This document shows positions 23,362 to 64,000 of a stretch of 64,000 nucleotides of DNA, piece after piece. The DNA is taken from contig CM114271.1 of NCBI GenBank assembly GCA_050084515.1, positions 47,616,001 through 47,680,000 on the forward strand, read 5' to 3'. The notes beneath the pieces are model-generated. The model was not told the DNA's origin, did not search any database, and was given only the letters and a program-made list of their open reading frames with translations. The position numbers were made by a program, and so were the translations under genes. This DNA is from Blasia pusilla (lineage: Eukaryota). The first letter of the stretch is position 1. Every line of letters begins with the position of its first letter.

Positions 23362-23783
23362 CGACGACATAGAGAGTCAGCGGACTGTCAGGTGCAACTT
23401 CGTCTCGAGATGTCGGATGAGGTTGGCGACAAGTCTATTATGTCGGGAACATCGTTTATGGCGATTTTCCTATTTTGGTTTTAGTCCGTCAGGTGACCCG
23501 TTGACCGGGTCAACAATCACCCGATAACATGTGCATGCAGGTTGCCGTTGGTAGGGCTATTTTTGGTTCTTCCCAAGGGTATAAGAGTGAGAGAGATGGC
23601 TTTCTCAAGCCATCTTTCAAATGTTGAGCCTTAGGAGCAGCTCTCTTGCATAGACGTGTGTGAGTGTGTAGAAGTTAGGGTGCTAGCGTCCGGATTCTCT
23701 TATTGCACAGGGTGGATGTGGTTCGATATGCCGATATAGATTCATGAGTGGAGTTTTAGGCCGGGTGAGCCATTTTTACTACA
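23362..23783 (+). repeat. Long direct repeat A2 (LTR-like)
   Basis: Copy of 18070-18506, ending CATTTTTACTACA. Confidence 0.9.
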
Positions 23784-23816
23784 CTTGATTTAGTTGTGGG
23801 GTCTCGATGTATATGT

Positions 23817-23819
<3 letters not shown>

Positions 23820-23847
<28 letters not shown>
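23820..23847. repeat. (TA)n microsatellite
   Basis: About 14 perfect TA units. Confidence 0.95.
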
Positions 23848-23850
<3 letters not shown>

Positions 23851-27605: not shown

Positions 27606-30600
27606 CTAACGCTCTTTCAGTGCTGCCGATCGGATAGTGGACTTCTTTGAGTTTGCAGCAGCCAAAATGGAGGGGTTGTCATTCCAAAAACGATCTTTAA
27701 TCAAGTCCTCATGTACGACTACCACAGTTGACCTCGTCCTTTTTATCGGCACTCCATTGTCAGGTTTCACCACATTCTCATCCTGTGGACACATGCGAAG
27801 GCCATCACATCAGCCTTCACGAAACGATGACAGCCTTCCTGAAGGTGCGCTCGGGAAAGCACTACAATACATTAGGATAAGAATCACGGTGTCCAGAGGA
27901 GGTGGTGAGAACGAAAGATTGTCCTAAGAAGTACACGTAAGATCGTTGGAATTATTATTCATCTACCTAGGTCTAATCAAACGGAGGGGATAAAGAGAAG
28001 CACACTCTCTCTGCTAAGGTACGAAACGACGAAGCCTACCTTCCTCTTGAAGACCAGTGATCCTTTGCGGAAAATCGCTGGCAGATCGTTATAGTTTATA
28101 CCAAATCGTGTATGCAGAAGCTCATTCTTGAAGTCTGCTAGTGTACCCTGCCCATTACATGCTGGAAATTAGTGAGCAAGTCAAAGCAAGAACACAGACA
28201 GCATCAACTCAACATCGATCATTCTGCTCTGATTACAATTGGTAAAAGCAAGTACTGTAGGAGAGGAATCCACTTCTCACAAGCACCAACAGCAATCAGT
28301 CACGATTTAACTGGAAATAGTTGTTTTCAGTACCTGTGTATTTCCAACTATTTCCTGAGGTTGACACAAGTCAGTTGTGTCAACCTCAGGAATACCTTAC
28401 AACCCTTCTCTGTGGGTGGTTGGGTTTAAACCCCAAAACTACAAGTCCCGACAGGCCTGGTATGTTGGGACGACATGTTCTAAAGCAGTGCTCCTGGGTA
28501 GCTTATAATGAGTGAACCGCGTGCAAGCAATATAGCAATACTCTCTGTCGAGTTGCCCATTGCTGTAGTTGGAACCTGTAGTGAGCTTGCGATGTCGTTC
28601 CCCTGGTTGGTAGGTGTGGATTAGTGTGTCCTGTAATCCATGCGACTTGCGGCAGTTGTGCCACAAGTAAGGTGTCCAGTGGACTTAGTTGGAGAAATGG
28701 AGACCTCTCCTTCTTTTGAAGCTGGATTCACGGGCCCTCCTCTGCAGCTTAATGCCAGGGCTGTTCACCTTGGAAGGTAGTGATGATCTCTGGGGGTAAC
28801 AAGCGGGCTCTCTTTGGGCACCCTGCCGCTTGGAGGCAGCCCCTCCGCACAAATAGGACAGCGAGTCCCTGTCTGGACTCTCGGGCTGGGAGCTTAAACA
28901 TTCTCCCCAGATCCTAAATCAGTTGTTTGCCAAACCTCTACATATAATCAGCGGCCTTGAGCCCAATATATCTCAGTCCTCCCAAGCTTGTGAGGAGTAT
29001 CAGCTCACCTATCAAAGGCACAGACCAACGCCCACCATCCCCAAGCTGGGTGGGGAATACCGGCATGTTTATGTGAGACGCTCAAAGGCCCCCCGGAGTT
29101 CGGACCTGGGCAGCGAGTTCAATCTGGTCTACAGGAGGAGACCACGGTTCCACATGATCATTTTTGGTGTACGTCCCACAGTAGACTTTGTCTCATTTAA
29201 GATCATGTGCGCAGCTTTGGGCTTTGAATTCCTGGCTACTGCTGGGGTTACTCGGATGATGAACGGCAATCAATGTATCTTCAAGGCGTCTATCAAGGGC
29301 AGAGGAGGCCAATACTTGGCTTGCCACAAAAACCAGGTGTCTCAAGATCTGAGACGTGCCTACAACTGGAGGGCTATGGTAGTCGAGGGTGGTTCCAGCT
29401 TGAAGGAAAGGCCCATCTCCACAAAACCGCTGGTGATCTACACACCTAATATCTTTAGTGTTCTCCAAGGGACCAGCGATGAAGAGCCTGCACATGAAGA
29501 GGTTCCATGTCGCAAGCAGCCACACCGACGCCAAAAGCGTGCCCGCCGATCCCCAACCCACTTAGTGACAGGTCTCCGTTTGGGTACCTGGAACTTCTGT
29601 GGACTGACCCATGCAATGAAGCAGCTGGAGGTTGCTGAAGTTTTGCTGAAAAATCAAATACATATATGCGGGGGTCAGGAAACTTGGGAAACCAAGTTAA
29701 TGGAGATACCCCATGTACCACACTATGCATGGTTTGGAAAGATGTGCAGCACCCAGGCGGACAACAACAGAGGTATGAAGGGTGTCGGGTTCTTCATCAG
29801 AGACTTCATGGTGGACAGGTGTGAGATCATCAGCACAGGGCTCGAGTATGAACACAGCATATGGGTCAAAGTCCGAGCTGAGTGCAACTCGCGGGATATG
29901 TATATCGGGTGTATTTACATGCCTACAAACAGTGAATCTGCTGCTGTGATAGAGGCAGCGTTTGATAGTGTGAAAACTGATTGCCTTGGGTTCCAGACAA
30001 AGGGGAACATAGTCTTGCTGGGAGACTTCAACAGTTGGGTGGGGCAAGGCACTGATCCCCAAGCGGAGATCGAATGTTTGGAGATGTGAGAGTGAATGGC
30101 AATGGCACACGGCTGATCACGATGTTGAGGGAACTTCAACTGATGGCACTTAATGATAGGCATAAGGTGGGATCCCCGGCTTGGACTAGGGTCAACTTCA
30201 AGGAGAATGAGAGCTCCATTGTGGACTACATAGCTGTGGATGAGGAACTCTACACACGCAGTGGGAAGATCACAGTGGATGCGACAGACATTGGAAGATC
30301 AGATCATTCATTGGTCTGGACAGAGTTGCAGCAAAGGCTAAAATGCTCGACCAAACCAGTGAAGAGGGTGATCAAGAAATGGAGGATAGAGGACTTCCAA
30401 GATGAGGGCAACAAGAAGGTGTACATTGGCAAGCTGGAAGAAAATCTCTTGGCATTTGACACTTTCATTGAATCTACCGTCAAGACCTTTGGGTTCACAA
30501 GAACAACTGTGGACATGGTGCTGGCATGGTGGGAGCGTGGAGTGACAGATGCCGCCGAGATTGCTGTCGGCAGGAAATTGATAATATGCGGCAGAGCCGT

Positions 30601-33600
30601 CAAATGGTGGTCCTTGGAACTCAAGGCAGCCATTGCCAAACGAAGGGAAGCGTATGTCACAAGTGCCAAAGCCAGGGACAATGCATCCTTGTGGGCAGAG
30701 TATGTGGCCCTACGCAAGGAAACCCGTCTTCTCGTGCGCATGCACAAGAAGAAAATGAACCAAGCCACATACTCATCCATCAATGAGAATTTCACTGAGA
30801 ATCAGAAAAAGTTCTGGATGGAAGTGCAGAAATTGAGCAAGGCCAGGGACAGAAACGACGTAAAGGCCTTGAAGAGAAAAGACGGTGGAATGGTGACCAC
30901 AGCTAAACAGATCCGACATGTGTTGGAAGGCCATTACAAGGAGTTAGGCAGGAAGCCCGCTCGGACATCCCTTGAAGAGCAGAACTTCGAGAGGGTGGTG
31001 GAGGATTTTGTTAAGATACAACGGGAGAAGGCAGATGATGAGGTTGAGCTGGGCAACCCATATAATGATTGGTTCTCCCTGGCTGAGGTGGGAGCAGCGA
31101 TCAAAGAACTGGTGAACCACAAAGCAGGCGGTGGTGATGAGCTTGTGAATGAGCTGTTGAAGTATGGGGATGCTGCCATGGCTCGTTCTCTAGTGAGTCT
31201 CTTCAACCTGGTCTGGCGGGCAGAAGTCATCCCACAAAGATGGCGGATGGGAGTCATCGTGAACCTCTTCAAGAAGGGTGAGCGAGAAGACCCTGGAAAC
31301 TACAGGGGTATTACATTGCTGAGTGTAGTCGGGAAGCTCCTCTGCCGTATACTCAACAATAGGATCTCTATGTACCTGGAGGAGAATTCTGTCATCAAGG
31401 AAGGCCAGGCTGGCTTCCGGCAAGCCCGAGGATACGTGGACCACATCTTCACCTTCAGTCAGATCATCCAGGGTAGGAAAAAAGAGGGGAAACCCACCTA
31501 TTGCTTCTTCTTAGACCTCAAGAAGGCATACGACACTGTATGGCGTGACGGGCTTTCTTATAGCCTGTGGAAGGTGGGGCTGAGAGGGAAAATGTGGAGG
31601 GTGGTGGAGAAGATGTACCAGAACACAAGGAGTAGAGTTCTGGTAAAAGGCCAAAAGAGTGGGACATTCGACATCAAGCAAGGAGTGGCTCAAGGATGCC
31701 CGCTCTCCCCCACCCTCTTCAACATTTTCGTGAATTCCCTACTGGAAGAAATGGAGGATAGTGGACTAGGCATACGGGTGGGCAACAACTCTATTGTTGC
31801 CCTCATGTTTGCTGATGACTTTGGTGGCCTTGAGGTAACAGGAGAGAAACTCCAAGAGATGATCTCCCTGACCAAAATCTGGTGTGACATGTGGGGCATG
31901 GAGGCAAATGTACTGAAGTGCGGTGTGATGATTTTCAATGGCAAGGAGGACCAAGACCAACAGTGGTACTGGGGTGACCAAGAGATCCCCCGTGTGGCTA
32001 CCTACACCTATCTGGGCATAGAATTCTCGGAAGATTGCATGTGGGATGCACACATCAAGAAGACTACTGAGAAAGGCCACAAGAAGGTGAACGGTCTGTC
32101 CAGATTCCTACAGTGCCGGGACATCACATCAGAAGTAAAGCGCTGTGTCATTTTGCATACCATTCATCCCTCGCTGGAATACGGGGCAGCAGTGTGGGAT
32201 GCCAACACCAAACAAAGGGATAGGCTTGAAGCTGTGCAGCTGAAGGCGTTTCGGGGTATGATGTCAACTTCATCACGAACAGCCCGCGTTGGTGTGAGAT
32301 CAGAACTAGGTGTGGAACCCTTGGAGGATAGACGTGACATCGCCAAGTTGAAATGGCGGAGGCAGCTGGAGACAATGGACTCCCATCGCTATCCTAAAGA
32401 GGTGATGGGGAAAACCTGGACCCAAAGAAGACCCGTAAAGCAGGCCAAATCTTGGACGAAAAAGGTTCAAGAGATTGTGCAAGCATCCAAGCTCCCAGCA
32501 GGGCCTGAACTGTGGGAGCAAGATGAGAAAGCATTTGTGGATACCATAACCAAAGCAGTGGGCAAACGCTCACAGCAGAACAGCATGGAGGAAGCCATGA
32601 AAATGTCTGACCTCTCTCTTTTGACGGTATATCCCGAGAGGGCAGAACTGAAGAACTATTTGCGGGGAACCCCTTGCTTGGGAACCCGGCTCAAGTTCAA
32701 GTTCAGGACGGGGGCAATCCCCTTGAACCATAAGAAAAGCAGGATGGGAACACAACTAAACTCTTGCGCCTTGTGTGACGATGGGGACGAAACCTCTAGT
32801 CATTACTTGGTCTCCTGCGCAAAATTCACAACACACAGAGCAAGAGCATATGCTGATATTGCTAAGCTGGTAGCACCAGAATTGTTCAACACATTCAGTA
32901 GCCTTGATTCATTGCCCAAAGCTGCTGCACTGGTAAGTAATGTCTATTGGGGATCCCAATCAGGTAAAGTAGATTGTGTGGTGAAGAGTTTCTTGGTTGA
33001 CACTTGGAAGCTCCGCACAAACACGTTGTTTGGTCAGCACTCACACTATATGAGAGTGTCTCCCTCCTCTCATATGGTACCTTCTTCACTTGCTTCTCTC
33101 TCTACACCCATCCCAGTCTCAAGCACCGTCCAACCAGGGCGCGGGGTCTATGGTCGCAAGGCTACGACAGGCACTACTTAATGAGTACAGTCTGTGGGTG
33201 TGGTGAGATCCCCAGTTAGGATTGGAGCATGGTCACAAATATACACTGCGAGCTCACAGATTAGGTTCACAGTCGTGGACCTAATCTTCCTTCCTTCCTC
33301 TCATCTGCCTCAGATATGCTATCTACCTAAGTCTTTCCAAGACCAGCTGCATGCTTATCATTACAAAATGGATCGAGTTCATTCTGGAATTCTTACACGC
33401 ACTCGGTCGGACAACGATACACAGAGAGAACACATGACGACTGAGGACAAATGCAATGATGTGTTCAAAATTAAGAATTGGTGCTTGATGGAACCTTGAT
33501 TAAATTCTGAGCTTCAGCTGGACTGATCCCAGACTGCACTATGTTCCAATAGCACGTATTGTATTGATTATTTACATGGCCTGCAAATTAGAGTCCAAAA

Positions 33601-46230: not shown

Positions 46231-48257
46231 AAAGAGCACAATTGATGTTGAACATTACCGTAACTCTATGGAAAGTAATATTCCGGAACATGTGGAATGT
46301 TGTATTCAAATTTTTTTCTCACTTGAACATTGCAAAGTTGGTGTTCCTGCAAAAAATAATGCATTCAATCCCCGTGAGGAAGTTGGCTCGAGGGTTGGCT
46401 TGGTGTTGCTTCGGGAAACATGCTTTAGTTGTTACCATGTAAGTATGTTAATAAGTAGTGGTAGTTTAACCTAGTCAGGAGCGTTCCACAAGACATAACC
46501 GCATTGATCGTCCCGGAAAAACCTGTAGCGTCATCCGCACTGTACATCTTTCCTCTATATTAGTCATGGCTATGCGAGATAGTAGCAACTAAAAAAAATG
46601 CTTCGGATGGCCTCCATACCCTACCCCTGAGGTCTTCTCCTCTTCATAAAGTCTTAGCGGCCTAAACTCACGACCTCTAAGTTAGTTGTAACTAGAGTTG
46701 TCCCTAATCGCCACTTACGAAAAGACGCTTAGGATTAATCCACTCCGCTTGTCGATGGAATGGAATGAGCTTCTGGAATGGTGTTGGTGGTTTGGTTTGC
46801 ACTCGTAGTAGAACGGAAACCAATCGGCCTTGAACACACTGAATGGAGTGTTCAAATTGTGAACACCTCGCGAGAGGTGTCCAATATTGCCCGAAAATGC
46901 ACCTTCGGCGTTGAAGTTATTCTTTTCGTATATTCATTCTTCTCACAATGGAGACAAAAAGAAAGCCTTCATTCACCATGGGATTTTAATCTTAGATGAA
47001 ATCTCACAAAAATGCTTTCATTATAGGCAAATACAAAGTTCATGTCACATTTTTGCCTATTTTTTGCCTCAGAACTGCACTAGTACAAGAAAATGTACAT
47101 CCTGCACTAGAACCGAATGTGCTAGTAGCTCATCAGTCACAATAGCGCCTCCAAGCTTGCACCTGAAAATAGAAAACTCATACATAATCAACATATATGG
47201 GAGATGCAAATGGGGAATGCAAACTAACTATATGTACACAAGTTCTATCCATTCACCTGTTGTGAAGTTTCAAGAATGTATAGCATTCGGTATAGCAGGC
47301 TGGAGTGAGGCAAAAGCACGACCGTGGCCGAAATCCCTGCTCAACACAAACATGACAAACATGTCAAGGCAACAAGCAAGGGAGTAAACAGAAAGCTACT
47401 CAAAGTTGAAAATGCCAATAATGCAAAGAACAAAAAACATTGCAACGGAGTGCCTCACCTGTGCAAGGACAAAATGGCAAAACTAATCCTTCCATAAAAG
47501 CGGAAAAACTGATCCTTCCATCCATCTCCTACAGAAAATTCCTAAGAAACAGAACGAAGACACTCACATGAAGGAAAGCAGGGGGTTGGTATTCTGGCAG
47601 GAGAGAGGAAGAGAGGAGAAGAAGAGAGGAGAGTCTCTCTTCAAAAAAAAGGGCCAAATCCTCCTCCTCTCTTCAAAAATTTTTGACATATTTGAAATTT
47701 TTGTTTGCTTTCAAATTCATGAAATCTTTAGAAGAAAGTAGGTAGTGGTCCACATTCGGGCCTAAAGAAACCTCCTTTTTCCAGGGGGCAAAAAACAAGT
47801 AGACATCATAAGACCACTACATCACTCTCCATGTGAGCCTAAGTTTCTTCACATTGCCTGTCTCAGTCTACAATAAGCTGTGCCCAGGGGTATTTTTGTT
47901 GGAGGGCCATTGGCAAATAATTTGACCAGAAGTAGCAATCTCATCTCAATGAAATGATCAAATAAAGACCAACTTTGTGAAATGTGAACACATGAGATGA
48001 TAATTGAACCAAAATATTGTTAGCTGTCTGGAGTAAAGAGGAACTAATGTCCCTTCATTCAGATCCTAAATCTGAGAAACCGAGAAGCTGCACCCCTCCC
48101 AATCCGTCGGAATTTTACAGGTTGCAACTCTTGCAACCCGTCCGAATCAGATGGCTTGCACCCCTTGCAAGCAAGCTCACCATAACAAAGGAAAGATTTT
48201 GAGAAGTGATTCCATTCCACCCTGCACCCACGAAAATCCAATAGGTTGGGAGGAGGA

Positions 48258-49390
48258 AATGGCAATCCGACATGTAGTAGGAATCCTGCACATCTTAGAC
48301 AAGAAAAGAAGCCTACAACTGGTTTGACGAATCTAGGGGAACGAGCCAAAAGTGAAAAAGCCGGCCACAATGCGTCAGAAGTTGGTCTCATAGGAAAGAG
48401 TCCGATCACTCAAGCAGCCAACATGTCGGAATCCGACAGCTTGCCTGGAAATGGTTTAACATTTGCAGTGGTCAAAAAGTGAAAAGTTGCAACCCGTCGG
48501 AATCATACGAGTTGCAAAATTGTAATTCTGAGTAGCTAGAAGAACACAATCCACAAGTCCAAAAAAAATATTCATCAAACTTTTCCAAACACCATTATCG
48601 GTTGAAAAAATCTCGTCCTTTATTACATCCAAAGGAATCTCGGAAATGTACATTTGACCTAGTCTATGATTTCTTCAGCCTCGTCATCTACAAATCTACT
48701 CCTAACTCTCCTAGGTTCCTGTACAAAAGGAATGTCCTGGGATACAAGTGGTTCCTCTGGCCGATTGTAAACGGGGATAAAAAATGTTGGCGAATTCGAG
48801 AGCCTTGGCCGCCCCCTAGGTACACCATAACGGTCCCATGTAACGTGATTTGAGTCCCACCGCCTTCCTCGGCAGTATATCTTGTACGCTCTGCAATGTG
48901 ACACCCATCCAGTATCAATATGTGCTCCGTCCTTGGAAATACCATGATGGCAATCCAACAAGTAGGAGGAATCCAACATGTCTTAGAGAAGAGAAGAATC
49001 CTACGCCTTGTTTGACGATACTAGGGGAAGTTGCCAAAGTGAAGAAGCCCGCCAGAATGCCTCTAAAGAGTCTGAAAGAGTCCGATCACTCATGCAGCCA
49101 ACATGTCGGAATCCGACAGGTTGCTTGGAAGTGGTTAAAAAGGTGCAGTGGTCAAAAAGTGAAAAGTTGCAAGCTGTGGAAATCCGGCGGGTTGCAAAAT
49201 AGAAGTCCTCAGAGTACATAGACGATCATATTCGACAAGACCAAAAAAGATATTCAGCAAACTTTTACAAACACCATCATCGTTCGAAAAAATCTTGTCC
49301 TTTATTACATCCGAAAGAAGCTCGGAACTGTACATTTGATCTATTCTATGAAATCTTTTGCCTCGTCATCAAATAAATCCCTACTCCAAA
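48258..49390. repeat. Diverged direct duplication (~48258-48700 and ~48947-49390; ~690-bp period) inside the MULE
   Basis: Colinear blocks ATGGCAATCC..GTAG.AGGAATCC, GTGGTCAAAAAGTGAAAAGTTGCAA, GTCCTTTATTACATCC occur twice. Confidence 0.8.
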
Positions 49391-49426
49391 CGCTGCAGTC
49401 AAGCTGGATCCTTGAGTTCTTCGACC

Positions 49427-52400
49427 TTACTCGTCATCGTCCGAGAGCTCTTCCAAGATTACTGTCGGCCTTGCCCTCCCGATTTTCGGAATCGTAGGAA
49501 GTGACGATGGTGTCACTACCAATGGTGGGTCTGGAACCGGAGCTCTCGGCTTCGGAGGAGAGTTGTACGCCCCAACTAGCATGTCGTAATCTGCCTTTGC
49601 CTCCTTGCAAAGGTCAAACAGTTCCTGCCTTCCCTCAAGGCAGAGAATGTTCCTGCCACTCTGCCAGCCGCCTCTGATACTTGCCCCTGAAAGGCCCACT
49701 AAGTCAAATACCAAGTCATCCGGCCTTGAGCAGAGCTCGATGAGCGTTTGCATCAGGGCTGGCGACTTTTCCCTTCCTCCAAGTAATGGGGTACCGTCTT
49801 GCATGAAAATTCCCGGGGGAGGGGGGAATTGTATAAACTATCTAAGCTGTACCCATCGGAGCATGGATCCACAGGATCCAGGATCTTAAACACCTGGAAG
49901 TTGTGCTAGGGCCGAACAAAGTAGTAAACATAGGAGTGGTCCATCCGTAAAGAAGCACGTTGGAAACAATGTCAGCAACTTGGCCACTGGTCTACTCTCA
50001 GTGTGGTGACATAATGTGCAACACGTCCCCAAAGAACTTCGCTTAACCCAGAGAACTTCTTTATAATCCTAACATTGGAGCAACCTGTCGGAGTCCGACA
50101 GGTTGTTTAACAAGTGTCTTGTGATTTTTTTGTCCATGAGCAACCCGTCGGAAGGCGACAAGTTTCTGGCTTAAAGCAGCCCATGGTTGGCTAAGAGCAA
50201 CCCGTCGCTTTCATACGGGTTGCATCATTCTAGAAATTGCAAAAGCATTAGCACTTGCAACCAGTCGCTTTCAGACGGGTTGCATCATTCCAGAAAATTG
50301 CAAAAGAAATAGCACTTGCAACCCGTCGGGTTCCGACGGGTTGCATTCACCCAATGGAGACTTGCCCTCAAACTGTAATCCATCGCTTTCAGACGGATTG
50401 CAAAAAGACCCAGCTCAAACAATCCGATGGGTTGCATGCAGAGATGCAACCCGTCGGAGAAAGACAATTTGGATACAAATTAAGAGCCCTTATCCAAATT
50501 TGACTCGTCGCGGATCGGAGTGGGTACTCATTCTTGATGACCCACGATTGCGCCGTCCTCCACTTCAGCGACCTCTTGACGCACTGGAGGTTGAAGAGCT
50601 CATCCTCGCTCCCTCCAGTCAAAACTAAGAAACAGCCCCTGTCACTGAGATAAGCGTCTGCAAAGGAAAAAAAGGGCGCGATCTGGTCATAAGAAAGAGG
50701 GACATTCCAGTCCGGGACCCCGTCGGATGGATTCTCGTCCCACAAGCGCAACCCCGAGGGAAAATCAGCAACGAGGAGATCCACCGCCACCTCTTCGACC
50801 TCCCCATGGACCGTCTAGGGAGCGTGCCCATTTTGTTGAAGCTTTCATCCCAGCGTTGTCAATTTCTCGATGGCGGGTGTCGATGCTTGGGAACTGAAAC
50901 TTTTCAGCTCATCCAGAAGATTCGTGCAGTGAAGGATGACGCTTGTCCGGGTCGTTGTTTCTCTATGTCTTCCCAAGGATGATGTAGTGTATTCCACATC
51001 CTGGTCTGCTCCCTGGGACAACCCTGGCTCCTCTCGCTTCCGCTTCTCCCGAGTCTTCGGTTGGCTTGTTGGGGTCTCTATGACCTCAAACTCTGGTGGA
51101 GTTTTCTTTGCGTAGGACCTGGTCCGACCCTCTCTCCCCGCTCGCCCAGACGATTCCGGCTCTCGCCTTGAATCTTCAGCCTCTCTTTGGGAAGACTCGG
51201 CCTCGAAATTCTTCGATCCCCTCGCCTTGGCTTTGAGACCCGCTGTAGATTTGTCCTTAGCGATGACAACCTTGGACACCAACTCCGCTATCTCGAGGGC
51301 TTGCTCCTCCGCATCTCCTTCGAAAAAGTCTTCACGCTACACAAAATTGGGGATGTCATCCCTACCTGCTGCCACTGCATCATAGAGCAAGCGTAGATCT
51401 TTCTCAGTTATGTCCTTAGGGTCCTTGAAGTCCAGCCAAATCGGGCAATTCTCCACCTCCCAATCGGACATGCTTTGAGCCATCTCCATGTCGTACATGG
51501 AAAATGTGTCTCCATCAGGTGGAGAAGCCCACAATTTGCAGGCTGCCGGTATTTTTTGCCATGTACTTGCATTCTTACAATGGACGAGGTACCTGAACAC
51601 CATGCGTTGGGCAGCTCTTAGTCGAGATGCATCGGCCGCATGCTCTTGAAGATCTCGCTTCTTCTTTGCGAAATCCCTTTTTTCTCCTCTATTTCTTCGT
51701 CAAGGTCTGCCTGAGGGAGGATGCGATCCTTGAACATCGTCCTGAAACCAAGGTTTTTTATGGGCTTGTCCCGCATGTCATCAAGCCAAAGTTCAAAATC
51801 TTCAGCACTCTCTAGGTTTTCTTCCTCCGGAACTGGCTCTATTCTTTTCAGCTCCGCTTGGAGACCCACGAGCATGGACTTCCCAAGAAGCCGCAACGCA
51901 TCCCAAAATGACCATTCACGGAGCTAGTGGGAGATCACTCGATCAGAGACACCTGGAGGATGGTGTGCCGCCCTCTTTTGGGCCTCTGTGCCCTCGAGAC
52001 AGATTTTCATCAGTCGGATTCTCCTAAATTCGCTAATTCTAGTCAAGGCAAATTGATGCACGCGATCAAGAGACACTTTCTCCCCAATCCGACCCTGCGG
52101 ATGACATGGCGCTTGATGATCGCCTTCAGCTCCTTGTAGAAATCGGGGCCAAGTTTGGGGTTGAGAATGGCGATGTAGCGCTGCATCTTGCTTGTCGTGC
52201 CGAGTGCAGATCATCGCAAAGCATGGATGAACTTTGCACGCTCAGACACAGACACTTTCTCCCTCTGCTCCAGCTCCAATGCAGCGCTCTTCTTGGCGGC
52301 CTGTATCTTCGACCAGCAAAGGATTTTCACGGCTACATCTTGGGAAATAAACTTATTTGCCCAAGTCTTTTTTTTTATTTAAGCAACCTTTGCCAGCATC

Positions 52401-54399
52401 TCATTTACAAGGGCGTCGCCCAAGAACCCCTTGTACTCTGCCGCGTGCGTCGTTAGCACTTTCTTCACCCGATGGCAATCCTGGATCCAGTGGTGGGTGA
52501 CATTCCCCTCCGATACAATCCAGCACATCCGAACTCAATATTAGAAATTTTGCAAGGTACATGGGTTCCTGCAACTCGTCGGACTCCGACAGGTCGTCCC
52601 AGCTCATGGTCGGAATGGAAGCAATGAGCTAAATTTTGCAACCCATTGGAGTCAGACGGATTGCATTTAGAGTTGTGATTGCCTGGTTTCAACCTGTCAG
52701 ACTCCGACGGGTTGTCAGATTATCCATATTTAGAGAGTGGTTTCCGCGAAAAAAGTGAACATATCAACCCGTCGGAGTCCGACAGGTTGCGCGATTTCAA
52801 TTAAGGTGCAATTTGACCACAAAAATGTAGCTCCGCTACTTTCAAATGCAACCTATCAGACTCCAACCAGTTGCTTTCAGCCAGAAACATCAAAAAATAG
52901 CTTCGAGTCTAGCAACCCGTCGGACTCCGACGAGTTGCTTTCTTCAAAAAACATCCAAAAACAGCGGTGAGTCGAGCAACTTGTCGGACTCTGACGAGTT
53001 GCTTTCGGCCAAAAACATCCTAAACGAGGGATCAGTCGAGCAACCCGTCGGACTCCGACGAGTTGCTTTCGGCCAAAAACATCCTAAATGAGTGATCAGT
53101 CAAGCAACTCGTCGGAGTCCGACGAGTTGCTTTCGCCAAAAACATTCCAAAAACAGTGGCGACTCAAAAACTTGTCGGAGTCCGATAGTTTGCAGCAAGA
53201 GGAAACTTACGTGTTCATGGCATGCATGGCCGTCTCCACCGTCGCCATGTGATGAGGGTATGGATGTAGCACCACTGCCTTCACGCAAAAATGTGCCTCC
53301 AATGAGTTTGGGCGCTCCTCTGCAAACTGGGTCCATGCCATGAACTTGTGGTTTCCATCCCAGATGAAGAAATACAAGTTCTGCATCCAGCAGAATTCCG
53401 TCCCCTCTATCGCCCTTCTGAATTCTTGTTGTCTCATCCTCCAAAATGTGTCGAGCGCTTCCAAGTCCTCCTCCGTAACCAACGCTTGGGTTCCATGGTC
53501 ATCATAAGATTGAACATAAGCTGTCGACGTAGGATGTTGTCGCTGCCAATTGTTTCAGCTTCGCAATATCCTCATCAGATTGAATATCGCGGACGTACTC
53601 CATAGTTCGCAATTGGCAAAGTGGAATTCTCGGGGCGTATTGGCCCTCCATCAGTGCCATCTGCTTTACCACCTGTCACAGCGGGGACAAGGTCAATAAG
53701 CTACACTGAATTTCCAATGAATTGCAACATGGGCCTTCACATAATTCAGTGAACACTGATCCTCTCTTACCCGCTCGAAGATTGAGTCGGTGTCTAGGCC
53801 AGCCAACTGCTCTGGGACAGCAGCTGGCAAGTCCACTGGAAACTCATCGATCCGATAGAGGTTGATTTCTTCCGCCAGGCTTAGGGACGAGGATGACATC
53901 TCTCCTGCTTCTTCAGCTATATCCACCATCTCCACGCTGGCGGTCCTCATGACCTCATCGTCCGTCACTTGAACTTCGGTCATTTATGGTATATTGATTG
54001 TGTCCCCGGACTTCATCGGGGACATTTCCTGCATCTCAACACTTTTTGTTGGATGGGCAAGGCTTTCTTCCATGGCAATTGCTTTTTCCCTCCGAGCTTT
54101 TGCCAATTCTGCTCTCCTCCCAACGCGTCCAGACGCTTCTTTTCTCGCTTTTCGTCGGCGACCCTTTTCTTCAAGGCATGCGACGCCTCAACCTCTGCAT
54201 TCTGTTTTTCGAGCGCCTCATGTACACGTTTTGCAAGAAGCTCTTGCTTGTGCATCTCCGCTTCCCTTTCCAGCTCCTCGATTTCTTGCTGCCTTATCTC
54301 ATTGGCCGAACGAGGCCCTGGAGATGGTGAAGCAGAAGTCCTCATGGACTTGGGAGTGAAGCTCCCACCCTTGTTTGCTTGAGATTTTTTCCTCGTCAT
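49427..54399 (-). pseudogene. Multi-exon gene: coiled coil, ParB/Sulfiredoxin-like domain, helical/low-complexity linker, beta-class N6-adenine/N4-cytosine methyltransferase-like domain
   Basis: ParB-like: RIPLCQLRTMEYVRDIQSDEDIAKLKQL (~53545-53630) and YFFIWDGNHKFMAW (~53330-53375). MTase: VDLLVADFPSG (motif IV, ~50755-50785), FADAYLSDRGCFLV, then EKSPALMQTLIELCSRPDDLVFDLVGLSGAS...SGRNILCLE (motifs X/I/II, ~49635-49770). Introns 53770-53673, 53210-~52570 and ~50490-~50050. Several stops and frameshifts. Confidence 0.75.
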
Positions 54400-55917
54400 T
54401 GTTTCCGAAAATGCCTCCTATGGACAAGGAAATTTCTCTCTGTGCACGATGAATTGGCTCGAGGAATCTCCTTTATGAGTCGCCTTGCTGATATCACGAT
54501 GAGTCACCTTGATGAGCAGCTCGAATCGTCTCGTGATCGTTCGCTTGAATCGTCTCACGACGAGTCGCCGTGTAAAGCGCCCCTTGGTATCTGGTCAGCT
54601 GCTGCGCGGAAGAGCAATTGAGATCACGAAATGAAAAACCAGAAATGAGCGAGCCTTCCCCTATTTATACTTTTCGAGCCGTTGGGCTGACCGTTGGGTC
54701 GCATCGTCCTTCGACGGCGACGTGCCGGCCGTTATGGTAGTCTAGACATGAAAAAAAACCAACCCGACGGCTTCGACAGGTTGCACCCTTCCCGAGGGTT
54801 CAAGGCATCCATCCTCGTGGCAACCCGTCGGAGACCGACAGGTTGCGCGCCTCCGTCATCTTCGGACAAGAACACGAGGTTCCCACGCAACCTGTCGGAG
54901 ACCGACAGGTTGCTCGCCTATGCTATCTTTGGACAAGAACGCGAGGTATCCGCGCAACCCGTCGGATTCCGGTGGGTTGCACGCTTCCCTCATCTTGGGA
55001 TAACAAGGCGGGCTTCCCGCGCAACTCGTCGGAGGCCAATAGGTTGCACGCTTCCTTCATGTAAGCGTAACAAGGTAAGGCACTTGCGCAATCCGTCTGA
55101 GGCCGACGGGTTGTGCGCCTCCGCCGTCTTTGGGCAAGAAGGTGCGGCCTGCCCAACTCGTCAGAAAGAGACGGGTTGCACACTTCCTTAATGTAAGTAA
55201 CACAAGGTGAGGAAATTGCGCAACCCGTCTGAGGCTGACGGGTTGCGCGCCTCCGCCGTCTTCGGGCAAGAAGGCGTGGCACCCATGCAACTCGTCGGAG
55301 ATTGACGGGTTGCACGCTTCCTTCATGTTAGCGTTACAAGGTGAGGCACAAGCGTGCAACCCGTCCTGAAGCCGACGGGTTGCACGCTTTGCTTATGTTC
55401 GGTTAATAGGCGAGGTACCAGGGTTCCCCGTTGGTTATCGATAGGTTGCACGCTTTTCTATCCCTCGAGTAACAATGCGACAACGCATAGTTCGGAGGCA
55501 ACCCATTGCAATTCGACGGGTCACAAGATCTACCCTGAGTTGGACAATCTCGCAAATGTCCCCAACGATTGGTTGCCTTAGCATATGCAAGTGATATCTT
55601 GTGTTGATGCTAGCAAAATTGACTCAAAAAACCTTTGGTCGGCAAGAAGGGGGTATCAACCCAACGGACTCCGACGGGTTCCAACAAAAAGAAGTGCATG
55701 CTTTGAAACCAACGTCTCTGATTCCCAAATTCTGCAACCCACCTGACTCCGAAAAGTTGCGACAGAATTGGATCCATTGTGTCAGATATTTTCAACTACC
55801 ATACTTCATCTTGTCAGTCAAATCCTGTCAGGAGAATCTGAGTCCCTATTCACTATAAATTAAAAATTCTCATTCGCATTCTCATACCAATTCTCTGTCT
55901 CCTCTCGGTGGAATCTT

Positions 55918-58900
55918 TTGGGAATGGACAATTATGTGAAGCTTACTTGTGGCTGTCATCTAGCGGCCCTTCCTCAATCAGAAATCGTTCGACCGCAAGC
56001 TCGTGAGTCTTTCATGGCAGTGGATGAAAATTTTCTATTAGTTCAATTTCTTCTCCAAATTAGAACCATCTTTGTATCCAAGGATGTTAGGGTGGACGGT
56101 ACGGAGGACATTATAGGTGAGATAGTCCAGCCACTGATTGTAGACCGTAAAGTATGGAATCTCCTAACTCTAGCAAATGGTCAATACAGAGTTTACGGCT
56201 TGCCCCTGAATTCCTCTGTTTCCCAAGTAGACGGTCGAGAACTTCCTAGTGCACCGAGCTCTACGTTTGCAACTCCTAGCTCAGTAGATCCGGCTTCGAC
56301 TCCAACTTCAAACGCTCGTAACAATGTTGTACTTCTTGAAGATATTCCGATGTTTTCAACCTCAGTGGATCTGTCGGACACCAACCGGGCCCTCTGTCCG
56401 CCTACTCATTCCTCTTGCGAGTATCAGGCAATAGTTTGCTATCGTCTCTGGCCTTGAAAATGTTCAAGCACATTCTTGTCGACAAGCTGCCATCCACGTA
56501 CGATGGTAATTGCATTTTTGAGTTGCCTCCACTTGCTGCTCCTGCTCAAAAGAAAGATGGAGGATGCTTGAAGGGTATGGACAGAAAGTCTGATTGTCAT
56601 CGATGGTGCAGGCTTCAACGGACTAGTGCTTCAATTCCAGATGGTCCTTGGATTGTCTCCCGCCACCAATGCGTTGGAGCCTTGGAGTGTAGAAGTCCAG
56701 CATGCCCGTTGTAATGTACAAGTGTTTCTATTTTATAGTCGATTTAGTAAGTTCGATCCCCAAGAGGATCATTGCTTGATGAAAAGAGAATTCGGAATTA
56801 CAATTTTGTTGTAATAGTTGTATTCAAATGTGTGTGAGTTATATTCAATGTCTTATCAATATCTTCTGATCTTTCTTAGTACCAAAGGATCTTTTCTCGA
56901 TTCTCTCTAGTGGAATTGACAGCATGTTCAGGTAGATTTTCCTCTCGACATCAAGAAACCTCACAGAGATTTCAACACAAAAGCTGGCTTCTCCTACTTT
57001 CGGAACTCAATCCGTCTCGGTAGGTTACTCTCTGTCAAACAGATTTCCTACAACTCATGTTGATTATTTCACTGATGAGAAAGGTTTGCCTAATTCACTC
57101 CTCATTCTGCAGACCCAAAAATAATACTCAGACATAGGCATCGCACACTAGAATGAATGAATGATTGCTTTACTACTCCATCAAGAACGAGAAAGCTTCA
57201 AAGTGTATACAAGCTTGAGAGGGTACTTCTCTCTTGCTCGGACCATTCCTACAGCATGAGGACTTCGTAAGAGAATGATGATTATGGCTTCTGCCTTGCT
57301 TCTTAAAGATTCGCTCGAGTGGAAGTGATCCTAAGATTCGAAACGTTCTTGATGAAGCTAGTGTCTCTTCACTATTTCTAACTACCTAGATCTATGGTTC
57401 TCTTAGCTTTTCCTACGATTCCTGTGAATCCGTAGTACAAAACTGTTCTAACTACCACTTTGATACAAAGGGTCGCGCCCTTTCCTAGTCATGTTTTAAC
57501 ATGTGTCTCTTGAAATCACAGTCCTTCTTAGCTTCGCTTCGTTGGACTTCAGGAGGACGAAGTACTCCATGCTTCGTTCTTATCTCCTGTGCTTCGTGCT
57601 TCGTTAAAGAGCGAAGTACCTCATTCTTCTTTTCTTTGTGATGCTTGGTTATGTAGCGAAGCACTTCTTAGACAGAGCTTCGTACATCTTCGTTAAGCTT
57701 CGTTAAGCTTCTTGAGACTTCGTTATTGCGTTTTCCTCTCCTCTAAGGCAAATCCTTGATCTTCCATCTCTCTGCCTTGTCCCAGGAGCTTCGTGATTCA
57801 CTTATTCTTCTTCATAATAATAAATAATCATAATCAAAATCATAATATACAAGAGTCTTCGTTGAATAAAAAGATATATTCTTCAAGATTACAAAATTGT
57901 GGGTATCACACCCGTATCTAGAGTGCAACGGGCGAGTCAATACGTCGCAATTCCCCCCCAAGAATGCAGAAACTCCATATGAGGTCGGTGCCACCATACC
58001 GCCGGGAGGCCATCGATGTCCTCATTGTCACGCATCCCCCTTCTGTGTTGGAGCGTGTACTGCATACATACTTTTCATTGTGCACGACTTGGGCTCCACG
58101 TCAGAGTACACAAGGTTGGTAGTTCATGTTGGCTCCCACACTCATCCTGTGACCGATGCAATTCAGAGACACATCAAGGAGGATATCGCAAAGAAAGTGG
58201 CCAAGGTCTATAGAAACTCTCCGGGTTCAAAGCCGGGAGTGATCGAGCTCACAACAGCATCACAAATTTGTGAACAATTGCTTGGCATCCCTCGATAGGG
58301 CGAGATCACGGCTGCTGAGGAGAAACAAGTGTGGGAAAATCTCGCATTTCTCGCTGATCCTCAATGCTTCCGAAATTTGTTGCATCAAATACGGGTACTG
58401 GATGGAAAGACGGCCGAAATGGATGCCATTGCTAGAATCAAGGCCAACTCCAGATTTCCATTCATTCAGAGATGGTAGTTCATGGGCCAGGGAGGCGAGG
58501 GATCCTGGGCCTATCTCTTCAAAATGTCAACCACAGGTCTGTCGAATGAGGGAAGGGGAAGATCTTTACGGGAGTTGGGTAAGCTTTGATATTTGCTAGA
58601 GAGTGCTGAACGGATGGTTGATAATGGGTGCTCATGTTTATGACCATGTGGAGAAGGGACTCAAAACTATATTTGTCTATGAAGTAAAAGCAGAAGACGT
58701 TGGCAGTTTGAAGATGTGCTGGTTACTCTTATTGGAGGTGGTGAAGGAAAACAAAAGGCCACCTCCGGAAATTTATGGGTTCATGGCGGACAATGCACAA
58801 CCTGGATGGATTGCTATGAGGGAAGTGTTCTAGGGTGGAGAGGTTCAACCGGAGAGGGAAAGGTTGGATGCTTTCCATTGGCAACAGTTTGTGACCCGGT

Positions 58901-61089
58901 ACACCAAATCTTGCATCAAGGAGAATAAGAAGACAGAGCATGTCACTATACTCCAACGGTGCAAGGACAGCAAAACCTTGAAACAGGCCATGGAATGCCA
59001 AGAAGAACTTCATGGGTGGTGGAGGAAGCATGCGATTGAGGGGAAGTACAAAGAGTTGTGCTCTTGGTTGAGTTGGTGGACTGTACGTATGAGACAATGG
59101 GGAAACTTCATGCGGCACGTGACTTCACTATTTCGTCTTGTCAAGCTCACGCTGAGAATTGTTTGAAAAGTTGCAGCTCAAGTTGAGAAGCGTGGGAACT
59201 ATAGGGATTTCAAACCGAAGAAACCAAGAAATTTTCGGATGCGACGGGTTGCCCAAGTGTGCAATCCGTCTGAAATGGACGGGTTTCCTGAGTTTGCAAC
59301 CAGTCGGAAACCGACGGGTTGCATCCAGAATTTTGGTGTAACCCGTATACAAGTATGCAAATCGCATGCATACAAGGCCTGCAAATAGTTCGACCCGGAT
59401 GGGTTTCGGATGACTTGCACTTGGATCTTCCAGCCCGGAGTGGCCAAAGGTTCTTGCAACCCGTCGGAATCGGACGGGTTGCAGTAGGTGTTTCCTGGGT
59501 GTTGCAACATGTCGGAACCCGACGGGTCGCAGAGTTTGACTTCTGAGCTATTTTCGTTCCCTTCTAACATTTCCGTCGTTGCAGGGATTGAACATTCATG
59601 AAAATGCCCTTTGCCCCAACACAAGTGGAGCAGAAAGTGTTCATTCCTCCTGGAGGTCGTCACAAGCATGCCAACAAATTTCACTTGTGGAGGCATGCCA
59701 ACAAGACCAGGCAAGAGCAATCTTTGCGATCTGCAAAGCATCCCATATCTTCCTCACAAAAGGCATAACAAAAGGAAGGGGCCTTCAATCTACCAAACTA
59801 TATGTCGTATGCGGTGTGAGATCGGTGATGAGAAACTCTATGTGGAAGCCTTCAACCGGTGCGTAGCAGGAACTCCCCTCGAGCAAGACGTACACATTGG
59901 TGGGGATATTCGTGGGCGCGTTTCAAGACGTCCCATACAGATGGTGATAGAGCAGTCCGAGCGAGACTCGTGGAGACCATATAAGTATCTTGACTTCAGG
60001 CAAGTGAAGAGGCAGCATCAAGGAACAAATCCGGTGATTGATTTGGATGAGGAAATTATGCCGCCCAGGTATTTGGGGATCCCGGACCGCTCCCAAATCC
60101 GTGATGGAGCAACTTCTCCAAAATCAGTGAATGTTTTATTTCAAAAGCCCTCGGTTGCTGGAAGTTCGCAACATCCGGTCGCTGGGATGGTTCAACAATA
60201 TGGGATTCCGGTAATGGAGGTGGATTGCAACCTAAAACGGTGCCATATATCTCGGAGCAACCCAGGACGTGGACCCAATTGCAGGGCAGGATCTGATGTC
60301 ATAAGGAGAGCATGCGGCACTTTCCTAAATAAGAACTGTACAAGGACTGGACGACCACTGCCTGGGTTTTGGGGACTCAAAAACTTTGATCATTTCACGA
60401 GGACCGCGGATCAATTGAAGTACTTCTTCTGCCCAAATGAATCTTGCGCTTTCCGCAAGTCTTATCCGGCTGCCATTGGAGCTCTGGGGAATACCCCCAC
60501 AATTTGGCCCATTGCCGCAGGTACGAACTGCATTCAAGACGAAGTGGACAATCTTACAAGTGCCGATTTCAGACTCGTAGACGGAGGAAGTTCGGAGCAT
60601 GTTTGCATTACAGAGACCTTTCCATTTCGTATTCAACCCAATATTGACGTCAACATGTACCCGAAGAAGGTGGATAATCTCAATCCACTATTTGTGTTTG
60701 AGTCTAGAAATGGGGTGAAGAGAAACAGAATGTATAGGCCAACGGTGGAGAGAGTAAAGCGAATTGCATCAGCTCGGGAGGCAAAAATGGAGATCATCGC
60801 CACGAAAGATGTCCTGAGTGGCAATGGAATAGGAAGGATGTATTGGGTTAGGAACAACACTGTAAATTCAAGTGTCACAGGGGTGTATGTGGTGCACATC
60901 TCTTGCTTTCCCACATGTTCATGTGATGACTTTGTCCAAAGAGAGACAAGTGGCAAAAGATATTTCCCTTGTAAGCACATGTACTATGTGTTGCTGGTAG
61001 TTTTAAGAGAGTCGGAGGTAGGAGTAGGAATCCACCAACCAATTCTGTCCCTCAAAGAAGTGCAAAGTATTTTAAACAAACCACTTTGA
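55918..61089 (+). pseudogene. Mutator-like transposase (GCM/WRKY-type Zn domain, DDE core, SWIM), disrupted by a solo LTR
   Basis: HQCVGALECRSPACP|YLECNGRVN...CPHC...C...HVGSHTHP rejoins in frame after LTR removal. Core motifs VSFD, GFMADNA, AFHWQQ, then intron ~59119-59584, then TSGAESVHSSW (catalytic E). SWIM motif CSCDDF...PCKH at ~60915-60980. Confidence 0.85.
56710..57910. mobile_element. Solo LTR inserted in the MULE transposase
   Basis: TG...CA, 1201 bp, 5-bp TSD CCCGT (56705-56709 / 57911-57915). Homologous to 14310-15738. Confidence 0.93.
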
Positions 61090-64000
61090 GGATGCAAAAT
61101 GAGGTTTTAGATTTTTTTTTCATTTTTCCAGAACCTTCACTTTGAGCTTGAACTCTATTCAACCTAGGGCAAATGATAGATTTTTTCCAAACCTTGGATG
61201 GAAAAAGTGATTGGTTCCACACTTATGATTCCACTGATTTTTCAGTTTTCTAAATTTTGTGCAATTTGCAACTCGTCGGACTCAGAGGGGTTGCCAAAAT
61301 ATGGAAGAGGAAAAAAAAACTATGGGACTGCTTAATAACTGAGCAAAAAAGTGCAAAAAAATTCACACAAAAAGTTTCCTCTCTTCAACCCAACGGAAAC
61401 TCTCTTTAAAAAAAAGTATCTATTTCCTCTCTCCTCTCTCCTCTCTCCTCTCTTCCTCTCCTCTTACCGCACCTCAAGGAAAGCACAGTGCCAATTGTGA
61501 ATACCTCTACACTAAGGGATAGCTCAACATCACCAAGACGGTCTGGAAAAGGAATGCCCCTAAAGGAAAGACAATGGCACATAATATAACTCGCAAGTAC
61601 CTCTGAGGTTGCTCGTAGCAACAACATCACCATAGAGCTAGAAGATATGCTAAGTGCATTTTAACATTTCTGGTGGACTTCAACTACACACATAAGGGCA
61701 AGTAGAAGGTGGTAAGAATGATGCCAAAACCTATGATCCACAAAATAGGCGGAATTCCCACCAAAAAAACTAACACTGCTCCTTGCAACTACTATGTTCA
61801 TACTTATAAATTTTCCTCGCCGCATTGCTGTCTATGTCCCAGCATCTACTGTCGTAGTTCTGACCCTCCACTTATGGACAAGGTACCCACTTCAAAACCT
61901 TGCAATGATGGTGTCAAGAAGATAGGCAATAGAGTGGAATTTGGTCCCCACATTCCACACCAGGCTGCTGGTCCTCACTTGGGCCGCACACTATAGTCTA
62001 GAGAACTTCATCTCCGTGCACACATTTCAATATCTTCTTGATCAAGACTGAAATGTAAAGTGTCTAAAGCACACTTCACTTCCTCCATGAAACTAAGGCA
62101 CGGTACTTAAACTCAGGGAAATTAAACATGGTCCACCACATCATCGCCATTGTTCAAGTTGATTGGAGAATGCAAGTGATGTCCATCCCTTCTAGACACC
62201 TAAAAAAAAACATGTAGCGTTTCAATGACCGGGTCATACACACAATCAGAAAAGATAAACATTTTCAAGTTGAAGGGTTATCATGCTGTAGTATACTTGT
62301 GAGTGGAAGTCTAACTCAAAGTTCTTCTTCATTTGGCCAAGTACATCTTTCTCCTGATTTTCATGGCTTCTTTAGTTTTGCCATGTTTAGGAAAAACTAC
62401 AGGCTCACCCTGGTCCTCGACTTGGTCAGGACTAGAGGAGATACGGGACGAACGCCGAGATGGACATAGACCTCTTGAAACCGGGTTCATGGTTTGATAG
62501 GCTGGCTTTTCAGAAGCAGGTGAGCTCTTGCCCATGAATGCAGCAAACATATTTTATAGTTTCAAGATTACAGTGCCGATTCTCCCCGTCTCCCTTGCAC
62601 AATGGAACCTATGTAAGAACATTACCAACCATACAAGTAAGCAAAGAATGGTTACGTGGGCATTCAAAGACAGGTTGCACATGTCCATCATGCAAAGAAA
62701 AGGTGCAATGTTTTAGAAGAGGATGAGAGCATCCGCATAGTAGTGATATTCGACTATGTTGCATAAATACTTCTGAGCACATAAATGGAAGAGCCGAATG
62801 CCTGTAAAATTTTTGACTTTGAATAACGATATTCCATCGAACTAACGGCTGCCACCAACTTAACCCATTACCCCTACAAAAGTAGACATAGGGTTGTCTA
62901 CACGTGGATCAACATCTAAAATCTACATACAACTGAGCCCTATGACTCATAGGGCCCAATTTACACAGATACAAACACGATAATATTCAAGCTACAAACA
63001 AGTGAATAAGCATTAGGTGGTATCCGGAATTGACCACGGAAATCTACAATCTCTACTATTTTAGGGTGTTCTAGTAGGTTTTCAAGATGTTGAAGATTGT
63101 CCATTACTTGCACATATAAGAGCATGAACAACGTCATTAATTACTAGCCAACACTACGCTAGATCATAGCATGTATGTGAAGTAAAAAAGGAAAGTAGGA
63201 TGTATGCAACGAGCTTACCACGAGCTAAATTGAGAATGGCGAAGGAGTTGATAACTTCAGTCAAATCTAAAGGCTCGTCTTTCTCCACAAGTACGTTATC
63301 ATCTACAACAGTCTAGTCGATAAGGTAGATGCTCTTAGGAGTGAACCCAATCACCCAAGGGTTTGAGTTTTTTTCGTCGATATTATCTGTTGTGTTTAAT
63401 CTTCTCTTTAGTTGAATCATGCATACAAATTTTGATACCATGTTGCCTTGTGATGCCTTCATAAGATTCTTGATGTGTGGAATCCTCTAGGCTTTCATCT
63501 TCCCTCTCTCATTACCAACTACCAGAAACTCTATTTTTCCTTGCTTGTGGAAATAGGAATCAAACCAAACATGATTCCCCACCATGCGTGCTTTTGGTGA
63601 GAAGGCCACGTTGTATCCGGAATTTCTTGATGCAAGTTCTAAGCAATAGTAGGTATCTACATGAAACCCCAGGATTATCCAATCATCCAAATAATTTTGG
63701 GATTTCTCGTGGGATTGCTTGCATATAATGTTAGCTAAACAGAATTGGGCACATGAGTCCGTGTGAATCATGGGGCTCACCCATGTTTCGACCGACTCTT
63801 GAAATCCAGAAAGAAACGTGTAACATCTGTGAGAAAACAGAAAGTGACGAAATCACTGAAATCTTTACAAAACTTAGAGATACAAAGTGGCCTAGTCCGT
63901 CCGTGCGCTCACAGAAGAGCTTCGATAGAACCTGAATTGGGAGATAACTCGACATACGAGAATGCACTACCGCTGCGGCTCCTGACTATTTGACTACTCG

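Follow-up and report, generated by a model that had tools for sequence, protein, structure and literature searches.

In a 64,000-nucleotide stretch of the Blasia pusilla genome (assembly GCA_050084515.1, contig CM114271.1, positions 47,616,001 to 47,680,000 of the forward strand; hereafter the window, in which all coordinates are counted), a Mutator-like DNA transposon of ~13.3 kb (48018 to ~61293-61295) carries about 43 sites of a long, CpG-rich palindrome in its introns, its divergent upstream region, and its ends. We lean toward regarding these palindromes as self-recognition arrays, that is, as docking sites for a protein encoded by the element itself. As the binder, we tentatively propose the element's accessory protein, in which a weakly ParB-like domain appears to be joined to a DNA methyltransferase-like domain, and favor it slightly over the transposase encoded by the divergently oriented neighboring gene.

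The consensus of the motif is GCAACCCGTCGGA-N-TCCGACGGGTTGC, an odd palindrome of 27 bp with two 13-bp arms, four CpGs, and a single unconstrained central base (A13 C9 G12 T5 over 39 sites). Scanning the window with up to 7 mismatches in 26 positions revealed 39 full palindromes, every one within 48099-61294, and none in the remaining ~50.7 kb. Half-sites (up to 2 of 13 mismatches) gave the same picture, with all 57 located inside 48018-61295 and none in the other ~50.7 kb of the window. Such numbers lie far beyond chance, as a loose-center scan with up to three mismatches returned 20 matches vs 0 in 100 shuffles, and Markov simulations of the element's composition produced 0.27 half-sites vs the 57 found. 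Four of the half-sites (50423, 54772, 55371, and 59240) represent extra gapped or solitary sites in non-coding DNA, bringing the total to ~43 (39 full plus 4 gapped or half), and a single one, at 50715, is located in an exon. Sites within an array are spaced 57-71 bp apart, and between 50197 and 55387 Tandem Repeats Finder detected arrays whose periods are 61, 64, and 67/132 bp and in which every unit starts with GCAACCCGTCG. An earlier note on this DNA had described the copy number, arm length, one-nucleotide center, spacing, and CpG content of the palindrome and had seen none outside the element; our scans reproduced each of these properties, the confinement to the element holding within the window. 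In metagenomic sequences, a scan for the palindrome yielded no arrays, only single sites on two GC-rich contigs, which were judged to be chance matches.

The palindromes fall into six clusters, namely a left subterminal cluster, two arrays in introns of the accessory gene, one array in the divergent upstream region, a cluster in a transposase intron, and the right terminus. All six avoid exons, which make up ~60% of the element as counted from homology and splice motifs. The two accessory-gene arrays fill gaps between collinear segments homologous (tblastn) to a 1207-amino acid (aa) relative: ten palindromes (52571-53193; period 64 in the younger half) occupy the first intron between residues 321 and 328 of the relative and are preceded by a GTAAGT donor at ~53209, and seven palindromes (50080-50472; period 57-61, last interval 71) occupy the second intron between the homologous segments 50790-50608 and 49780-49613, with a candidate AG acceptor at ~49992. 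The largest array, of 11 palindromes and two gapped sites (54758-55760; period 67, higher-order period 132), lies in the divergent upstream region, 87-94 bp from each of two divergent TATA boxes, namely a minus-strand TATAAATA at 54663-54670 and a plus-strand TATAAAT at 55854-55860. In the transposase intron, a cluster of four palindromes and one half-site (59240-59530), delineated by scans and splice-site motifs, is bounded by a GT at ~59118 and by a TTGCAG acceptor followed by G at 59584, behind which the frame reads ...NTSGAESVH.... The left subterminal cluster (six palindromes, 48099-49195) lies partly inside a tandem duplication of ~680 bp (48259-48709 and 48947-49394; 81% identity) with two palindromes per unit, and one terminal palindrome (61268-61294) forms the right end of the element and abuts a candidate target-site duplication. 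The intron borders rest on homology and splice-site motifs because no RNA-only joint was present among the 15 joints listed out of 368. The placement proposed previously, in two accessory-gene introns, the divergent promoter region, and a transposase intron, was thus borne out by tblastn, TATA boxes, and splice motifs.

The palindrome is conserved where its surroundings are not, as the earlier note had also suspected. Palindrome identity was 0.73 between clusters and 0.75 within clusters, whereas inter-cluster spacer identity was 0.45, the level of shuffled sequence (0.46). Even inside the 50080-50472 array, adjacent spacers are unrelated, and the spacing is still 57-61 bp. The two arms showed no compensatory excess in a test of co-variation (9 cells observed vs 9.2 shuffled), which rules out selection for a hairpin as the cause of the symmetry; the symmetry therefore belongs to the consensus, as would be the case for the binding site of a dimer, rather than to a maintained hairpin.

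Genomic reads (~1% of one whole-genome run, aligned at ≥90% likeness, with depth summed over copies) revealed that the window copy belongs to a family that is highly repeated in the genome, with depths of 106-1152 along the element. Bins covering the arrays were among the shallowest (268; 272 and 404; 145 and 106; elsewhere 208-1152), the bin 52814-53287 (404) being an exception, and the divergent upstream array displayed the lowest depth of the whole element. The arrays are thus not over-represented and do not represent an independent, more abundant satellite, at least as far as palindromes with these spacers are concerned, since the depth test is blind to palindromes with other spacers. Among the 15 DNA joints listed (of 368), 11 or 12 end at the edge of a palindrome, in the form of skips, back-steps, and strand switches, indicating that other copies have the same palindrome with differing spacers and repeat numbers. 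The left subterminal duplication likewise is single in some genomic copies, in which a DNA joint from 48567 to 49255 skips 687 bp.

RNA reads over the element were few and mostly 90-95% alike, indicating that they derive from other copies. Read directions are consistent with a minus-strand RNA across 48548-49969 and a plus-strand RNA across 58500-61345. RNA depth was ~0 over the divergent upstream array and 0 in the bin 49970-50443. An array that sits between two divergent TATA boxes with ~0 RNA is as expected of a shared upstream control region. The left subterminal region also contains an open reading frame (ORF) of 107 aa with an acidic tail (48659-48982, minus strand), located where the binned RNA depth of the element is highest (~10x, minus-strand direction). 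This ORF had no Pfam match and no homologs in our searches and could be a third gene or part of the 3' untranslated region of the accessory gene.

We infer from these patterns that the palindrome is bound by a protein. In the mechanism that we propose, an element-encoded, probably dimeric, sequence-specific protein would bind the 27-bp dyad, and the dense sites in the shared upstream region, the introns, and the ends would concentrate this protein on the element. The concentrated protein could then set the transcription or DNA-modification state of the element, and the sites themselves would multiply and turn over through tandem duplication of a unit consisting of the palindrome and its local flank. 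By analogy, the palindromes are best read as binding-site arrays of the kind known from VANDAL transposons and their VANC proteins. VANC motifs are described as rare except in the introns and upstream regions of VANDALs, where they form dynamic tandem repeats (PMC5735166), and motif binding and loss of methylation are reported for VANC, the anti-silencing proteins of the VANDAL21/VANDAL6 transposons of Arabidopsis (PMC5735166, PMC10398659). The earlier note had drawn this comparison, and the published architecture, in which the motifs are tandemly repeated within introns and upstream of genes, agrees with it (PMC5735166). Further likenesses to the published descriptions comprise a Mutator-superfamily element lacking long terminal inverted repeats, an accessory gene beside the transposase, and a repeat number that varies among copies. 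The differences are equally clear. VANC motifs are described there as 8-9 bp long, non-palindromic, and in one orientation, whereas the dyad described here measures 27 bp and contains four CpGs; the accessory protein, set apart from VANC by its build and Pfam content, appears unrelated to it and carries a methyltransferase-like domain; and binding and demethylation are reported for VANC, whereas binding of the palindrome is a proposal.

The putative reader, the accessory gene, is encoded on the minus strand (49430-54399), divergently from the transposase gene, and was mapped by tblastn in broken frames. Two relatives of ~1200 aa, P0075 (the 1207-aa protein mentioned above) and P0019, found by phmmer and then aligned by tblastn, delineated the collinear segments 53660-53213, 52513-52079, 52163-51765, 51621-51277, 50790-50608, and 49780-49613. 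The predicted protein comprises an N-terminal DGQHR/ParB-like domain, a helical middle region, and a C-terminal domain resembling N6_N4-type DNA methyltransferases; its collinearity with P0075 and its divergent orientation match the build of accessory proteins from algal transposons, which have ~1100-1200 aa, begin with a ParB-like domain, end with one of PF01555 type, and are encoded opposite to the transposase. The exon containing WDGNHK had 72 relatives at E ≤0.001, the best matches reaching at most 36% identity, and the long relatives are hypothetical proteins of the liverwort Riccia sorocarpa. PF01555 (N6_N4 DNA methylase) matched the window ORF at E 0.004 (0.0043) and P0075 at E 5e-5, both below the 26.7-bit cut-off, and the C-termini of the long relatives matched it at E 5e-5 to 9e-6, just below the Pfam cut-off. 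Pfam scans of the element's ORFs gave only weak N6_N4_Mtase and SWIM matches (E ≤0.01) and no ParA-like gene, although no search dedicated to ParA was made.

The label "ParB-methyltransferase," with "parS-like" sites, which the earlier note had attached to this protein and its palindromes, could be retained only in part. Four of 32 relatives matched TIGR03187 DGQHR (best E 0.001) and one of 32 matched DndB (E 0.066), both weakly. In a wide structural search with the model of the N-domain (pLDDT 84.5), only three chains reached Z ≥2, two of which are ParB-like, PadC (2.5) and KorB (2.1). No ParBc Pfam match was obtained for the window ORF, its 31 aligned relatives, or the long relatives; a profile of the N-domain searched against solved structures returned no ParB, its sole match being a ribosomal protein at E 0.2; and Foldseek returned no match to the N-domain model at E ≤0.001. 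The model of another relative, P0018, was helical after the N-domain, albeit at low confidence (mean pLDDT 61.5), and in this low-confidence model of the middle region no helix-turn-helix (HTH), the domain through which ParB recognizes parS, was recognized, the best fold matches (Z up to 6.5) being generic helical bundles.

Several observations weigh against the proposed docking function or against the accessory protein as its agent. The designation "ParB-like" is tenable only in the wide sense of the ParB/Srx superfamily and is a weak assignment, and in the low-confidence model neither an HTH nor any other DNA-reading domain of the accessory protein was recognized. In the window protein as well as in its relatives, motif IV of the methyltransferase-like domain is D-x-P-[ST]-G instead of the usual (D/S)PP(Y/F), which makes catalysis uncertain. 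The transposase half of the element (56132-61345) is covered at ~800-1150 outside a nested repeat described below, 2-4x more deeply than the accessory half (50444-54709; ~210-360), indicating many palindrome-bearing copies that are without the accessory gene or have a more diverged one. RNA over the array at 52340-53287 rises up to 4.9x, above its flanking exons, indicating that this array is not cleanly intronic in all transcripts. Finally, a motif may also look conserved within one dead copy because it was recently amplified from one seed.

The alternative that survives best concerns the identity of the binder rather than the existence of binding. The palindrome could be the recognition site of the transposase, with the internal arrays representing amplified copies of the ends and the transposase, acting also as a transcription factor, activating or protecting its cognate copies; we consider this possible but rather doubtful. 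Frameshifts and a stop at 58831 disrupt the transposase gene (55924-61089, plus strand). It contains a WRKY/GCM1-like zinc finger (57870-58298, plus strand) recognized through Atlas feature matches, the nearest Atlas clusters of this ORF carrying GCM, FLYWCH, FAR1, and DBD_Tnp_Mut (score 0.95), and a core at 58600-59620 (plus strand) with FMADN..DAFHW..AESVH blocks recognized by eye. Its DxxH and ...AES.H blocks, likewise recognized by eye, resemble those of Mutator-type transposases. A SWIM finger near the C-terminus, also on the plus strand, matched at E 0.0031 (17.4 bits, below the cut-off of 19.6). No Pfam MULE match was found for the transposase at E up to 1, and no homologs of its 495-aa ORF were found among near or longer proteins. 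This zinc finger and the palindrome at the exact right terminus, where the last 27 bp of the element are the motif itself and abut the candidate target-site duplication, make the transposase a serious rival as the binder, and the six palindromes within 1.2 kb of the left end and the greater abundance in genomic reads of the transposase half, with its intron palindromes, point in the same direction. According to the relevant passages of a study of MuDR/AtMu1-type elements, element-specific motif copies are bound by an element protein controlling transcription and methylation, and the AtMu1 transposase binds the terminal inverted repeats and activates cognate copies (10.64898/2026.08.24.746577). 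The distribution of sites argues the other way, as 28 of the 39 are internal, in the two accessory-gene introns and the promoter region, and the left terminus contains no intact site, the first lying 80 bp inside a boundary that is itself uncertain. There are also no terminal inverted repeats beyond the motif, the end-to-end local alignment scoring 21 vs a shuffled mean of 19.3 (maximum 29) and the best local alignment of the two ends being the palindrome itself. The earlier note's claim that the arrays are loading sites for the element's own protein is thus supported in part: the arrays are real, non-coding, and conserved, and as their putative binder the accessory protein is favored only slightly over the transposase.

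An unlikely alternative is that no protein is involved and that the arrays are neutral by-products, formed when slippage, unequal exchange, or abortive gap repair carried copies of a terminal or subterminal palindromic unit into the interior of the element, to be kept wherever they left coding sequence unbroken. The arrays are indeed ordinary tandem repeats with periods of 61-67 bp; their low genomic depth (106-272, with the exception of 404) marks them as the least conserved parts of the element; their avoidance of exons is also predicted by purifying selection on the genes alone; and the arms decay independently, faster at CpG positions (0.22 changes per site vs 0.12 at other positions). However, the same 27-mer must then have seeded at least six separate places with unrelated flanks, the spacers of the older array have diverged to random while the palindrome and its spacing were kept, and a position between two TATA boxes is hard to attain by drift. 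Docking sites for an element-encoded protein remain our preferred explanation.

The excess of changes at CpG positions, where 44 of 69 are C>T or G>A, fits the decay of methylated DNA in a dead copy. Together with the four CpGs in the consensus site and the frequent targeting of tandem repeats by RNA interference or RNA-directed DNA methylation, as discussed for VANDALs in parts of two papers (PMC5735166, PMC10398659), this pattern could also mean that the arrays are targets or sources of host silencing, attracting DNA methylation or yielding small RNAs, but we regard this as improbable, since a 13-bp stem is short for small-RNA processing, the stem is not kept by compensatory changes, and sites targeted by the host should tend to disappear from the element rather than to multiply.

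A more specific version of the self-recognition proposal would have the accessory protein read the dyad and write a mark other than 5-methylcytosine (5mC), either N6-methyladenine (6mA) at a central GANTC or N4-methylcytosine (4mC) at the four CpGs, so that dense marks on the promoter and intron arrays would keep host 5mC silencing off the element. GANTC is the target of CcrM/HinfI-type methyltransferases, which belong to the same Pfam family as the PF01555-type domain, and the dyad is GANTC in 20 of the 39 sites. In the promoter array, only one of the eight regularly spaced sites has GANTC, a point to be added to those weighing against the proposed function, and we consider this version a long shot. 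If it were true, 6mA/4mC marking would constitute anti-silencing by competing DNA methylation in a Mutator-like transposon with liverwort relatives.

The components of this system, and the idea that such an element binds itself, are already in print for other lineages, including algal transposons. In the sections on Plavaka (EnSpm/CACTA) transposons of the red alga Bostrychia, the accessory genes PAG2 and PAG3 are described, along with a PF01555/SET protein, a ParB-like/2-oxoglutarate (2OG)-oxygenase protein, and tandem inverted-repeat arrays beside the ParB-like gene, and the element is suggested there to be bound and modified by the protein that it encodes (10.1101/2025.02.11.637652). The likeness to our element is one of architecture and consists of a DNA transposon with a PF01555 methylase, a weakly ParB-like domain, and tandem inverted-repeat arrays. 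According to those sections, Plavaka belongs to another superfamily, its ParB-like-2OG and methylase-SET combinations are on separate proteins, and its arrays lie next to the ParB-like gene, whereas here both domains are on one protein and the arrays occupy introns, the divergent promoter, and the ends. Closer in protein build is Sola1-1_Ec32 of the brown alga Ectocarpus, for which a 1104-aa ParB-like/DNA methyltransferase protein encoded opposite the transposase is described and self-binding or modification is proposed (PMC12477816). Compared by build only, this giant DNA transposon shares with ours a ParB-like plus methyltransferase protein of ~1100 aa opposite the transposase; it is a Sola1 rather than a Mutator-like element, and the passage on it mentions no repeat arrays.

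Published accounts of En/Spm TnpA, with its subterminal 12-bp motifs, and of MuDR/AtMu1 resemble our case in the many element-specific motif copies and in an element-encoded binder that also regulates the element. Their sites are terminal or subterminal, whereas those described here form mostly internal arrays in introns and the promoter region. The TnpA sites include CpGs, and some of them are arranged as inverted pairs. Bacterial ParB/parS partition systems, along with the ParB-like CTP switches KorB, Noc, and PadC, share palindromic sites, often several, and a dimeric binder of the ParB/Srx superfamily, whereas in our case no ParBc match and no HTH were found in the searches described above, and the 27-bp site has a free center and lies in a eukaryotic transposon. 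What is new here is the combination, in one Mutator-like element, of a single protein that is both ParB-like and methyltransferase-like with arrays of a long CpG-rich dyad that occupy the promoter, the introns, and the ends. If the element's own protein binds the arrays, the VANDAL principle, in which a reader is accompanied by many copies of its word, would have evolved independently a second time; the reader would in this case be fused to a DNA-modifying enzyme, in an element with relatives among liverwort (land-plant) proteins. The ParB-like/methyltransferase accessory genes reported from transposons of red, brown, and green algae would likewise be linked to a definite DNA target. With its long CpG-rich palindrome and very high copy number, the family lends itself to experimental testing.

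The boundaries of the element are of unequal quality. A candidate 9-bp target-site duplication, CCAAAATAT, of a length within the ~8-11 bp usual for the Mutator superfamily, is present at 48009-48017 and 61294-61302 (9/9 identical, or 10/11 if extended), the right copy abutting the terminal palindrome; a match of this kind is expected ~1 time over the whole search space and an estimated ~0.01 times once the right end is taken as given. Whole-genome reads support the right end, with a depth of 828 in the bin 60872-61345 and of 86 in the next (61346-61800). No such fall was observed on the left, where the flank 47600-48073 is itself highly repeated (depth ~380 left of 48074) and 289 genomic reads switch at 47965 to a different, mutually consistent sequence; the candidate duplication may underestimate how far the element reaches to the left, or the element may be embedded in another repeat. 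The earlier definition of the element by its target-site duplication accordingly holds for a plausible 9-bp duplication and the right end, and its left boundary is insecure. Both genes are broken by stops and frameshifts in the window copy, and most genomic reads have 1-2-bp deletions at 59722-59735, in the transposase gene, relative to it. The window copy is thus a fossil, and the function that we propose would have been exerted by the family's active progenitor.

The segment 56705-57910, considered as a transposase intron, is instead a nested insertion of an unrelated 1.2-kb repeat, as ~790 DNA reads join 56704 to 57911 and a second copy is present at 14310-15738 in the window (86% and 71% identity; repeat length ~1.2-1.4 kb). 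The insertion is missing from most genomic copies of the host element. The second copy carries a 134-bp inverted repeat of 99% identity (14943-15076/15715-15582).

Other features of the window lie far to the left of the element. Two direct repeats of 86% identity (18061-18509 and 23353-23786), ~5.3 kb apart, flank a region of strong GC skew and probably represent a long terminal repeat (LTR) retrotransposon. Long stretches of GC skew (0.2-0.38) with a GC content above that of their surroundings were observed at 1-10000, 18000-24000, and 30000-32000, and a tandem duplication of ~410 bp with 89% identity is located at 25689-26498.

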